From contig CAXHJY010000872.1 in the NCBI GenBank assembly GCA_964016885.1, positions 1-64,000 on the forward strand: 64,000 bases of DNA. The letters run 5' to 3'. Below, piece by piece: positions 5,134 through 20,013 of the stretch (position 1 is the stretch's first letter; every line of letters starts with the position of its first letter). The position numbers were made by a program, and so were the translations under genes. A model generated the notes under the pieces. The model did not search any database and was not told where the DNA came from. It saw only the letters and a program-made list of their open reading frames with translations. Source of the stretch: Eledone cirrhosa. Lineage: Eukaryota.

Positions 5134-5889
5134 ACGAAAACCTTAATGTATCGTATGTATAGAAATATGTATATGTACGTATGCATATATACACGTGTGT
5201 ATGTATATCCGTATATATATCTATATCAATCTATATGTATTTACATCAAACTCTCTCTCTCACTCTCTCATATATATATATATATTTATATATATTTATT
5301 ATAAAGCACACACACAATCTCAGTGTAAAATAGTGCATATTGCATAAGAAACAATACGAATCAAGAAAAAAACACGGATTCTTATAGAAAAAGAATAAAT
5401 TGTCTCCTTCATAAATATCCAACAAGAATTTTCCATTTTCAAAAAATTGTGCGTTCATCCCGATTATTGTGTATAGTATCGCACAGGACAGGACAAGGTT
5501 TCATATCTTGCGCAACGCTGTGATTGTATGTAATGTAATTATCTGTATCTTGTTATTACTATATTCGTAAATATGTGTTAGACCTGGAGAAGAGATGGGC
5601 TCCACCTGTTTTACAGGAATGCCTTAGAAACACCCTAAATATGCATTTATATTTCTATTCTTATTGTTATTCATTCTATTAACGATCTCTTTATATTGTA
5701 ACTGCTTTCATAGACTTTGTATTGAGAGAAATATTGACTGGACATTGATGTCTGTTCGTAGGGCCCCCTTATTGACGTATGGCGTTTCTAGCGCATTTCT
5801 AAACCTGGCGCAACCTATTTCCTTTCGAGCAGATCTCTTTCAGTGAACGAAAGAGCGAGTGAAAGAATGGAAGCCAGAAAAATTGAAGA

Positions 5890-6045
5890 AAAATTGACCC
5901 CAGTTCTAGAACGATACTTGTTTTATCGATCTCAAAAGGATGAAAGGCAAATTTGACCTCGGCGGGATTTGAACTCCGATAGCCGAAACGAATACTGCAA
6001 AGCATTCTATCCGACGTTCTAACGACATTTACAATTTGCCGCCCT
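5890..6045 (-). mobile_element. SINE family 1
   Basis: TTTTATCGATCTCAAAAGGATGAAAGGCAAATTTGACCTCGGCGGGATTTGAACTC core (Meta-domain-like plus B box). Confidence 0.75.
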
Positions 6046-6919
6046 TTTATTACGAATATGAAATTTTAATTCAGCCATGAGTGAATAGGAAAACGCTAGG
6101 CATTGAAATTATCCATAGTTATATTCATAAGTTGACAATTTCCAAGAAGAGAAACCAATAATGAAGTTGAAGATGTAATTAAGAAGTAATTAGTTAGATT
6201 ACTTCTTGGTTTCATAAGTTATTGCTTTTATCGCTGGCAGTGTTTATGTGAAATCAATGAAAGACGAACAATTCTATATATCTTAGCAAATAACGGAAAA
6301 TACTTAAGTCTCAGCAAACCAGTAGTTTTTTTTCATTTCCTACAAATGCGTGGCTTGCGAGTTGTATTCATAATCGAGAGATTGTGAGTTAAATTCCCAA
6401 TCAGGGCGAAGTATTTTGTCCTTGAGTAAGAAGCTTTATATCACGTTGCACCAGTGGTCTGAGAATTATTATCTTTTCTATAGTATTAATGATATCGAAA
6501 TCTCTAGTTCTAGAACTAGATAATTATCAGTGGTGAGGCAGCCTCTCGTTTGCCCACACCAGGAAGAGAAGGAAACCTAGTTTCCTCGGCTGTTTATCTA
6601 ATTATAGCAGTAGTTTTTGATGTTATGTCCATGTTGTACCAGTTAATTTAGTTCTTGGAATTATTGTGGGTCTATTGTAGCTTTTACAGTTGCTGTTTAA
6701 ATGTTATTATAGGTGCTGTATTCTAGTGTATTTTATGAAAGCTGGATGTGAGCGGTGACATTGATGTATATATATATGTCTATATGTATGTGCGTGTCCT
6801 CGTGTGTGTGTCCAATCATTTCCAGGTCTGAATGCACTAAATGTCTTCAAGAGAAGGATAGAGAGTGAGATTCTGGAAGTGTGAAAGACATACAGAAGAA
6901 GAAGCAACTCCAGTACTTA

Positions 6920-16817: not shown

Positions 16818-17183
16818 TACACGGGTGTGTATGATTGTGTACAGAAGATTATATAAATAAAAATAATTCCAACTTTTCTGATTTACCTCGTTTTATTTAC
16901 ATTCATTTAAAATTATAATATTATAATGAAATAGTATGGTGGAATATTAAATGTTAAATGTTAATTGAACAAGTACTTTCAAGCTTTCGTAATCTTCAGG
17001 TTCATATTCTCTGCTGACAGTCAAGTTTGCAATGAACCTCAAGATTGCGAAAGCATGAAAGTACTTGTTCAATTAACATCGAACATTAAATATTTTACCA
17101 TACTATTTCATTATAATATCATTATACTTTTAAAGATTGTAAATAAAACGAGTAAATCAGACAAAGTTGGAATTCCTTTTATT

Positions 17184-17185: not shown

Positions 17186-17704
<519 letters not shown>

Positions 17705-17996
17705 AAAAACAAATAAAGAAACGAAATTAAATTTCGTTTCATTTGTAACTCACTTTTGTATGACTGACGCTTAAACAATTAAGTTAAAGATGTACATCCA
17801 TATATGTATACTGAAATACTAGTATGTATATGAATACACACACGTATACATATGTAGATGTACCAAGTTTTTTCACTGGTCACTTTACTGTGAGTGGCAG
17901 CTATTCTGTATGTAAACACACAGACAAACCGTTTTTAGAGTCATACTGGTTTTTGAGGAAACACCTTTCCTCTATTCTCCAGAAAGCCAGACAAGG

Positions 17997-18041
17997 AATA
18001 TTGAACTAGTTTCGTTGTTGTTACAACTCATCAGCAATATT
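17997..18041 (-). ncRNA. Minimal type I hammerhead ribozyme (family R)
   Basis: AATATTG-CTGATGA-GTTG taacaa CAAC-GAA-ACTAGT-T-CAATATT on reverse strand. Confidence 0.85.
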
Positions 18042-18796
18042 TACCTATCTTCCGGCCTCTCTAGAGAATCGTAAAAGCACATATCGTTATATGCTTTTTC
18101 TATGAAAATTAGTAGTGGGCAGACTAATTTGCATAGAGTGTGAGTAAGTACCGGTTCAACGGAGACGATAAAAACAAATAACGAAACGAAATTAAATTTC
18201 GTTTCATTTGTAACTCACTTTTGTATGACTGACGCTTAAACAATTAAGTTAAAGATGTACATCCATATATGTATACTGAAATACTAGTATGTATATGAAT
18301 ACACACACGTATACATATGTAGATGTACCAAGTTTTTTTCACTGGTCACTTTACTGTGAGTGGCCAGCTAATTCTGTATGTAAACACAACAGACAAACCG
18401 GTTTTTAGAGTCATACTGGTTTTTGAGGAAACACCTTTCCTCTATTCTCCAGAAAGCCAGACAACAATAGCTGGCCACTCACAGTAAAGTGACCAGTGAA
18501 AAAACTTGGTACATCTACATATGTATACGTGTGTGTATTCATATACATACTAGTATTTCAGTATACATATATGGATGTACATCTTTAACTTAATTGTTTA
18601 AGCGTCAGTCATACAAAAGTGAGTTACAAATGAAACGAAATTTAATTTCGTTTCGTTATTTGTTTTTATCGTCTCCGTTGAACCGGGTACTTACTCACAC
18701 TCTATGCAAATTAGTCTGCCCACTACTAATTTTCATAGAAAAAGCATATAACGATATGTGCTTTTACGATTCTCTAGAGAGGCCGGAAGATAGGTA

Positions 18797-18841
18797 AATA
18801 TTGCTGATGAGTTGTAACAACAACGAAACTAGTTCAATATT
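18797..18841 (+). ncRNA. Minimal type I hammerhead ribozyme (family R)
   Basis: Perfect core, 7-bp helix I, 4-bp helix II, palindromic ACTAGT helix III, GUU triplet. Confidence 0.85.
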
Positions 18842-19263
18842 CCTTGTCTGGCTTTCTGGAGAATAGAGGAAAGGTGTTTCCTCAAAAACCAGTATGACTC
18901 TAAAAACCGGTTTGTCTGTGTGTTTACATACAGAATAGCTGGCCACTCACAGTAAAGTGACCAGTGAAAAAACTTGGTACATCTACATATGTATACGTGT
19001 GTGTATTCATATACATACTAGTATTTCAGTATACATATATGGATGTACATCTTTAACTTAATTGTTTAAGCGTCAGTCATACAAAAGTGAGTTACAAATG
19101 AAACGAAATTTAATTTCGTTTCGTTATTTGTTTTTATCGTCTCCGTTGAACCGGTACTTACTCACACTCTATGCAAATTAGTCTGCCCACTACTAATTTT
19201 CATAGAAAAAGCATATAACGATATGTGCTTTTACGATTCTCTAGAGAGGCCGGAAGATAGGTA

Positions 19264-19308
19264 AATATTGCTGATGAGTTGTAACAACAACGAAACTAGT
19301 TCAATATT
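19264..19308 (+). ncRNA. Minimal type I hammerhead ribozyme (family R)
   Basis: Identical to 18797-18841. Confidence 0.85.
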
Positions 19309-19730
19309 CCTTGTCTGGCTTCTGGAGAATAGAGGAAAGGTGTTTCCTCAAAAACCAGTATGACTCTAAAAACCGGTTTGTCTGTGTGTTTACATACAGA
19401 ATAGCTGGCCACTCACAGTAAAGTGACCAGTGAAAAAACTTGGTACATCTACATATGTATACGTGTGTGTATTCATATACATACTAGTATTTCAGTATAC
19501 ATATATGGATGTACATCTTTAACTTAATTGTTTAAGCGTCAGTCACTACAAAAGTGAGTTACAAATGAAACGAAATTTAATTTCGTTTCGTTATTTGTTT
19601 TTATCGTCTCCGTTGAACCGGTACTTACTCACACTCTATGCAAATTAGTCTGCCCACTACTAATTTTCATAGAAAAAGCATATAACGATATGTGCTTTTA
19701 CGATTCTCTAGAGAGGCCGGAAGATAGGTA

Positions 19731-19775
19731 AATATTGCTGATGAGTTGTAACAACAACGAAACTAGTTCAATATC
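19731..19775 (+). ncRNA. Minimal type I hammerhead ribozyme (family R)
   Basis: Same motif, one distal helix I change. Confidence 0.85.
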
Positions 19776-20013
19776 CCTTGTCTGGCTTTCTGGAGAATAG
19801 AGGAAAGGTGTTTCCTCAAAACCAGTATGACTCTAAAAACCGGTTTGTCTGTGTGTTTACATACAGAATAGCTGGCCACTCACAGTAAGTGACCAGTGAA
19901 AAAACTTGGTACATCTACATATGTTATACGTGTGTGTATTCATATACATACTAGTATTTCAGTATACATATATGGATGTACATCTTTAACTTAATTGCAT
20001 ATATATATACATA

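Follow-up and report, generated by a model that had tools for sequence, protein, structure and literature searches.

Retrozymes of the non-LTR type are already known from the Metazoa, and it has been proposed that Penelope-like elements (PLEs) mobilize them (PMC7229834; bioRxiv 10.64898/2026.07.22.740005). In the parts of the two reports considered here, mobilization by PLEs and a circular template are both proposed and are not shown, and the second report favours a DNA-based model for the growth of the arrays.

The PLEs have been described in greater structural detail. Their copies include an inverted 5'-truncated copy and have a tail at one end only, and the origin of both features is called an open problem (PMC8557442). 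According to PMC11167929, the tail corresponds to the sequence that separates two internal start sites of the reverse transcriptase (RT), and both strands of the target are cut and extended; in the in vitro experiments with a PLE from Anolis, the start sites were alike on both strands, unprocessed RNA was the main substrate, and cleavage by the hammerhead ribozyme (HHR) was unneeded. Non-autonomous multicopy Chlamys elements (MRC1) also exist (PMC8557442; PMC11167929).

In this report, we describe a retrozyme family of the cephalopod Eledone cirrhosa, starting from one locus in a stretch of 64,000 nucleotides (contig CAXHJY010000872.1, hereafter “the window”). Thousands of young insertions of this family provide a quantitative footprint, which we read as two fixed start sites, one per arm, a 12-nt stagger, and one edited molecule per insertion.

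The locus in the window

A first-pass annotation of the window had described about five nearly identical non-coding units with four HHRs, an inversion at 18465, and an insertion in TA. These points hold: the locus (17694-20009) consists of 4.9 units of a 467-base non-coding repeat (longest ATG frame, 55 amino acids) in two arms that are ~99% identical, it contains four type I hammerhead motifs, one per full unit and all built on a stem I of 7 bp, a stem II of 5 bp and the palindrome ACUAGU as stem III, and the three small palindromes named in the annotation are all present in the unit (Table 1). The minus-strand and plus-strand arms do meet at 18465, through one untemplated C. The target is (TA)n, and we additionally found a 12-bp target duplication, CATATATATATA, that encloses the entire two-armed element, which therefore represents one insertion. 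Noise of the assembly may account for the small indels of this copy. The phases of the unit are numbered along 18933-19399 of the plus strand, in the sense of the HHR; because this natural unit lacks one T, the numbering is accurate to about 1 nt only.

The unit has a GC content of 0.35, and its monomer is predicted to fold much more strongly than shuffled sequences (z = -9.3). An older subfamily has a GUC triplet and a compensatory change in stem II (GTTGT/ACAAC to GATGT/ACATC), an example of covariation. Two observations count against the explanation that we prefer below, namely that the lowest-energy predicted fold of the monomer is not the active hammerhead, and that the youngest subfamily carries a GUU triplet. 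An Rfam search at the gathering score gave no hits for the HHRs of the window. The ORF of an autonomous PLE, with RT and GIY-YIG, is absent from the retrozyme unit. In run X4, one contig closes on itself at 467 nt, a form in which a circle and a tandem repeat are indistinguishable.

Table 1. Positions of the features of the window locus and of sister-family copies (window coordinates unless a locus is named).
Feature	Position	Strand	Details
Left target duplication, 12 bp, CATATATATATA	17694-17705	.	Within (TA)n run; its last 3 nt overlap the element end
Left arm, 1.63 units	17703-18464	-	The long end, at phase 205, is the outer (3') end; the inner end, at phase 379, lies 10 nt past the predicted ribozyme cut
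Type I hammerhead motif 1	17997-18041 (core 18010-18034)	-	Predicted cut between 18004 and 18003
Head-to-head joint	18465	.	Single untemplated C
Right arm, 3.3 units	18466-19997	+	The short end, at phase 132, is the outer (3') end; the inner end lies at ~phase 2
Type I hammerhead motif 2	18797-18841 (core 18804)	+	GUU triplet, with a 7-bp stem I, a 5-bp stem II and ACUAGU (palindromic) as stem III; cut predicted after 18834
Tail, example; the interval that separates the short (phases 131/136) from the long (phase 205) end sites	19063-19137	+	Contains hairpin 19100-19122 and T5 run 19131-19135
Promoter-like block, example	19170-19220	+	TATGCAAATTAG at 19170-19181; TATA-like box at 19211-19220
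Other TATGCAAATTAG copies in the element	18703, 19637	+	
Other TATGCAAATTAG copy in the element	18124-18135	-	
Type I hammerhead motif 3	19264-19308 (core 19271)	+	
Type I hammerhead motif 4	19731-19775 (core 19738)	+	One change at far end of stem I
Right target duplication, 12 bp, CATATATATATA	19998-20009	.	
Sister family copies	L097:1928-2780 and 5530-6289; L118:5690-5965; L166:1-720		

The family across the genome

The annotation had named a single-locus array with no transcripts as evidence against its reading; the array is not confined to a single locus. Exact-pattern matching in the 3.0-Gb genome gives 9,201 HHR copies of the window family and 2,146 exact junctions of phase 205 with TA; with the inclusion of sister families that share this stem III, exact patterns give 39,335 HHRs. 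We analysed 120 further stretches, of which 20 were top hits, 60 were chosen by an end at phase 205, and 40 by an end at phase 131/136, the latter two sets from contig C1 only; L081, a duplicate of L080, was left out of all counts. The identity of the copies spans 87% to 100%. One long arm (G000:C1:5,738,322-5,752,448) contains ~31 units (14 kb), and the shared minor variants in its fetched part (L055) suggest that it grew after insertion. A sister retrozyme family, with a unit of ~424-430 bp that is ~70% identical in part and a GUA triplet, is also two-armed, and its tail is ~61 nt. Words of the retrozyme unit are also present in public runs of many other organisms, among which related species, diet and contamination are not distinguished; those in run X5 are fragment-like.

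Fixed and paired ends

Among 208 arms, the outer end lies at phase 205 in 97 (long end) and at phases 131 and 136 in 43 and 40, respectively (short end); the sizes of these classes are partly set by the picking of loci, which does not so affect the pairing of long with short ends. Outer ends at two such fixed sites are the signature of a PLE tail. The annotation had pointed out that the two ends of the window element fall at different phases, as expected for a circular template, and had proposed to check other loci for circularly permuted ends. The phases do differ (205 and 132), but both are simply the two fixed end sites of the family, and only the inner ends are spread. A random circular permutation of the outer ends is thus ruled out by the fixed sites 205, 131 and 136.

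There are 86 head-to-head joints across the 120 stretches. In 68 of the 70 two-armed insertions that could be classified, one end is at ~205 and the other at 131-137, the two exceptions being one long-long and one short-short insertion (L092 and L122); the other 16 joints have one unclassified end, in six cases because the arm runs out of the stretch. Long and short ends are paired in 14/14 top hits, 33/33 long-end picks and 20/22 short-end picks, as well as in the window locus. Even very short inverted arms (12-22 nt) have the complementary class of end in all eight further loci where they occur. About 28 arms are without a partner arm. Target duplications of 11-13 bp are legible in 11 retrozyme loci, and the remaining loci are in pure TA. 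In contigs of run X1, loose ends run into TA at phase 136 and at phase 205 (19068 and 19137 in the window).

The annotation had also considered that the inversion and the copy number might come from chimeric reads. We reject such an artefact at the level of the family, in view of the 86 joints, the target duplication, and strand-switch joints at many other phases in contigs of the public runs X1 and X2, which come from one sample that may be the assembly's source. The head-to-head form is the usual layout of the family; the joint in the window itself is known from the assembly alone. A fold-back origin of the second arm is likewise rejected, because inner phases and arm lengths are independent, and because second arms often exceed first arms in length. 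Symmetric joints (L036, L073, L093, L095, L068 and L086) are located in the unit's own hairpins. Long-end arms pass the short site without stopping, for up to 13 units, and no tail-to-tail joint was seen among the loci apart from one nested case.

It should be mentioned that a retrozyme arm is joined to other PLE-type DNA in seven loci (L118, L069, L035, L094, L096, L103 and L097). We set these chimeric joints aside as evidence: a duplicated pre-insertion copy of L097 shows a target deletion, and the PLE of L118 is no more than 94% similar to the copies nearest to it. At L069:1620-1700, a short match joins a 40-nt retrozyme piece to a PLE ORF, within the RT region of the latter, and the piece faces a long-end arm head to head, as a result of either a template switch or a target deletion.

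Evidence for one RNA per insertion

Both arms of a locus share locus-specific variants. In 46 of 68 pairs, no arm of any other locus is closer to an arm than its own partner, which is strictly the closest in 27. The 67 arrays of at least three units represent 52 distinct haplotypes; 48 of them have no shared minor variant and 15 no variation at all, as exemplified by L066 and L113 with 16 identical units. Shared minor variants are found in four long arrays (L034, L045, L055 and L136), which therefore experienced some growth or conversion after insertion.

The substitutions are strand-biased. In these tests, we omitted L036, L048, L063, L122 and L127, which contain two insertions or a palindromic joint. 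Among changes fixed in an array, A>G outnumbers T>C by 30 to 7 (19 to 4 for changes in both arms), whereas single-unit changes are balanced (29 vs 33). On a tree of 74 loci, the terminal branches carry 38 A>G and 8 T>C changes (p = 5e-6), with G>A and C>T at 10 each, and the bias is absent from the internal branches (19 vs 18); it is weak among strictly private variants (7 vs 4). The A>G sites are not enriched at paired bases (26/40 vs 90/150), and their 5' neighbour is U or A in 45/57, compared with 99/150 across the unit. ADAR has a 5'-neighbour preference, which this pattern weakly resembles. A change that belongs to one molecule, by editing or by an error of transcription, is thus found in all units of both arms, and therefore one monomer was copied many times.

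Inner ends and the predicted ribozyme cut

Inner ends are distributed along the whole unit, apart from a pile-up immediately 3' of the predicted cut: at phases 370-389, 23 ends are found and 9.0 are expected (p = 7e-5, or 0.003 after correction for scanning; arms shorter than 40 nt omitted), with no excess upstream. The pile-up persists without the top-hit set (19 vs 6.8) and is seen in first passes (11 vs 3.4) as well as in later passes (12 vs 5.0). It is consistent with the predicted self-cleavage of the HHR, as far as ends of DNA reflect it. A smaller excess occurs at phases 151-180, on the tail hairpin (22 vs 12.4, uncorrected p = 0.009).

Most copying nevertheless continues through the site: 161 of 194 arms cross the predicted cut, in a total of 396 crossings, and the excess stops number only ~15. 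Only three indels are found in ~480 passes through the cut, a rate of 0.0005 per nt that is near the background (median, 0.0003). Because the crossings are seamless and the stops few, we take the template to have been nearly always continuous through the cut and sometimes open there. Such continuity would match the behaviour of a closed circle. In one locus (L125), copying stopped at the cut (phase 368/370) and then restarted at 135.

A candidate promoter in each unit

Each unit also carries a candidate promoter motif of the U6/MRP type (Pol III type 3), although its spacing is imperfect. The motif, TATGCAAATTAG, occurs once per unit at phase 238 (form TATGC[A/T]AAT[T/G]AG) and is retained in the ~70% identical sister family; it matches an element of the host that lies at ~-77 in RNase MRP and in three U6 loci, and is absent from the host U2. 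Its distance from the TATA-like box is 43-44 nt in both retrozyme families, compared with 47-49 nt in the host genes, that is, 4-5 nt short. From its position, the start is predicted near phase 316. A vertebrate-like PSE, which had been a candidate at phases 14-33, was rejected when the host U2/U6 promoters did not match it. In a U6 cluster on C19 (L187 and L190), a SINE-like repeat is inserted between the upstream element and the start in two U6 copies.

The first run of four or more T past the predicted start is the T5 at phases 199-203, which falls on the long end, as does the corresponding run of the sister family (for the lack of earlier T4 runs before the long end, p = 0.058). The long end could therefore be the true 3' end of a linear RNA. 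A transcript of a full unit requires read-through of three T4-T5 runs.

Penelope-like elements in the same genome

An active PLE-like family is present in the genome, with at least 73 copies that are 100% identical over 300 amino acids, and open frames of 1,216-1,218 amino acids whose RT/GIY-YIG is PLE-like by its features. We compared the arms of this family in 14 pairs of opposite-strand hits and one large array. Long and short ends (HHR+257 vs +300 to +316) are paired in 13/13 directly joined two-armed copies, and the fourteenth pair and the large array agree. Duplications of 13-14 bp are legible in 2/14. The array (G000:C28:42,003,900-42,066,200; L204-L207) extends over ~62 kb with two arms, a unit of 4,146 bp, a 1,218-amino-acid open frame and an HHR; its sampled parts are 99-99.9% identical, and its short and long ends are as in the retrozyme. 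No real unit-like sequence was found in this family (the best match, with E = 0.009, is antisense and AT-rich), and none resembling an autonomous PLE end in ~1.1 Mb of fetched loci. The active family is therefore a candidate mobilizer by its anatomy and age only.

Other elements are also found around the locus. A small head-to-head inverted repeat at 16912-17125, with an HHR-like core at 16977-16999 (minus strand), is probably what remains of a two-armed copy from another PLE family. A Pfam search of the L058 ORF gave no hit. Further HHR-like cores in the window (16581, 21805, 35726, 35914, 36917, 37104, 38107, 43017 and 53213) represent several PLE-type families, often beside TA runs, and PLE-type families with ends ~55-75 nt apart are present in the fetched loci. 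Broken LINE-like RT fragments, identified by inspection of the translation by eye, are located at 27339-29165, 45769-46977 and 50902-51636, all on the minus strand.

How the arrays may have been formed

The high copy number, the (TA)n target, the 11-13-bp duplications, the head-to-head arms, the long and short ends, and the single variant per insertion are all evidence at the level of DNA. They make it very probable that the element is a retrozyme mobilized by a PLE, a conclusion common to the reading that we prefer and to the first three alternatives below. As in non-autonomous PLEs, there is an inverted 5' copy with a tail at one end (68/70) and an AT-microsatellite target, and the retrozyme is non-autonomous, with Penelope-type ends on its copies. 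The annotation had proposed rolling reverse transcription of a ~467-nt circular RNA by way of PLEs; its identification of a retrozyme and of PLE mobilization is retained, and its reason for a circle, the phases of the ends, is mistaken.

We consider it probable that a PLE-type enzyme would copy a circle from two fixed priming sites on one RNA. The U6-type promoter in one unit would drive transcription into the next, and the read-through RNA would be cut at successive hammerheads, likely as dimers, the form in which HHRs with this type of stem are said to cleave (PMC6765202), after which a host ligase would close the 467-nt monomer. The PLE endonuclease would then nick both strands ~12 nt apart, and the two 3' ends would prime on the same RNA at phase 205 and phase 131/136, with a TA match of 1-4 nt. 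Both reverse transcriptases would travel the same way round the RNA, with strand displacement, and end repair would join the two cDNA ends, creating the inversion.

Alternatively, the same PLE machinery might use a linear template, namely a partly cut multimer that is read through from an array already in place and terminates at the T5 run. The first priming would be at its 3' end and the second internal, in the manner of L1 twin priming. The coincidence of the long end with the first T-run in both families, the excess of inner ends at the cut, in the first pass as in later ones, and the use of unprocessed RNA as the main substrate in vitro (PMC11167929) would all suit such a template; however, separately edited units should give singletons, whereas the A>G excess is fixed across units and arms, and arrays could only shrink and new haplotypes would not be fixed, although 52 haplotypes exist in 67 arrays. 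Because long-end arms also run past the short site, for up to 13 units, we regard the linear multimer as unlikely. It is rather improbable that the circle is first amplified from RNA to RNA, by rolling transcription into a uniform multimer that the PLE then inserts, a route of amplification proposed in PMC6765202. This route accounts equally well for the uniformity of the arrays, the fixed edits and the seamless passage of the cut sites, but two additional rounds of copying and an antisense intermediate are required, T>C scars are not in excess, and we saw neither antisense-primed ends nor an antisense ribozyme among the loci, where one nested joint is tail to tail and the cores lie on one strand only.

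If the enzyme, on reaching the 5' end of cut, linear monomers, instead jumped repeatedly to the 3' end, no closed circle would be needed, and both the stop and restart in L125 and the clustering of stops at the cut would follow; jumping should leave scars, however, and the near-background rate of indels at the cut makes it very improbable. We give the least credence to a spread of the family as satellite DNA (local expansion, unequal crossover or circular DNA) with the ribozyme as a passenger, or to a chimera of the assembly. The minor variants shared within some long arrays and the arm of ~31 units are in keeping with a DNA process, whereas reverse transcription is indicated by ends that are fixed and paired, by the 12-bp duplications, by the strand bias of the changes and by the stops at the cut, and the second arms that are longer than the first exclude fold-back copying. 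DNA-based spread is largely refuted as the origin of new loci and is possible as a secondary process.

Returning to the circle copied from two fixed sites, I would speculate, tentatively and with somewhat more doubt than conviction, that Penelope retrotransposition itself may run via a circular RNA held by a dimer of the enzyme, the two subunits of which would seize both ends of a single staggered break, at two fixed sites, and would each travel round one and the same circle. The tail would then be the spacing of the sites, and the retrozyme a minimal, self-promoting parasite. The autonomous PLE would do likewise, because its 4,146-bp unit forms a ~62-kb two-armed array with the same long and short ends. 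If the circular reading is true, a rolling-circle, double-primed form of retrotransposition is defined, and it is explained how an element with an upstream-type promoter retains that promoter. The 467-nt substrate and the intact PLE protein allow direct tests.

Comparison with known systems

In the twin priming of L1, both ends of the target prime on one RNA and a head-to-head inversion is generated, with short microhomology at the joint; the second site is variable and the arms do not overlap. The retrozyme is likewise head to head, but both of its sites are fixed and both arms repeat the unit many times.

With the metazoan non-LTR retrozymes, the family shares tandem units that are non-coding and contain a single type I HHR, a low GC content, a self-paired monomer, and dispersed multi-copy loci with duplications of more than 4 bp, and each of these defining features was found here. 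The 467-nt unit is slightly above the 170-400-nt RNAs of PMC7229834 and within the 51-972-bp range of bioRxiv 10.64898/2026.07.22.740005. A two-armed layout, fixed paired ends, editing scars, an internal promoter and a cephalopod case are not described for metazoan retrozymes in the parts of these two reports considered here, and we found no published description of retrozymes whose ends are both fixed and paired, or that have editing scars or stops at the cut, although supplements might hold cephalopod examples. Retrozymes of Xenopus have a pLTR homologue, and none was found for the window family.

Schistosome Sm-alpha and newt satellite 2 resemble the retrozyme in that every unit of the tandem has both a promoter and an HHR, which lets one unit drive transcription of its downstream neighbour (PMC6765202). 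Newt satellite 2 is reported there as Pol II, whereas the retrozyme motif matches the upstream U6/MRP promoter of the host, and the account of the two satellites considered here does not describe PLE-type ends for either.

The EN+ PLEs differ from the retrozyme in their tail of 30-40 nt, compared with 69-74 nt, and the retrozyme has no ORF and many whole units per arm. It also follows a strict rule of one site per arm, which the in vitro study, in the part considered here, did not see (PMC11167929). With these elements, it shares the inverted 5'-truncated copy, the tail at one end, the targeting of (TA)n, the two internal RT start sites, the cutting and extension of both strands, and the predicted dimer (PMC8557442; PMC11167929).
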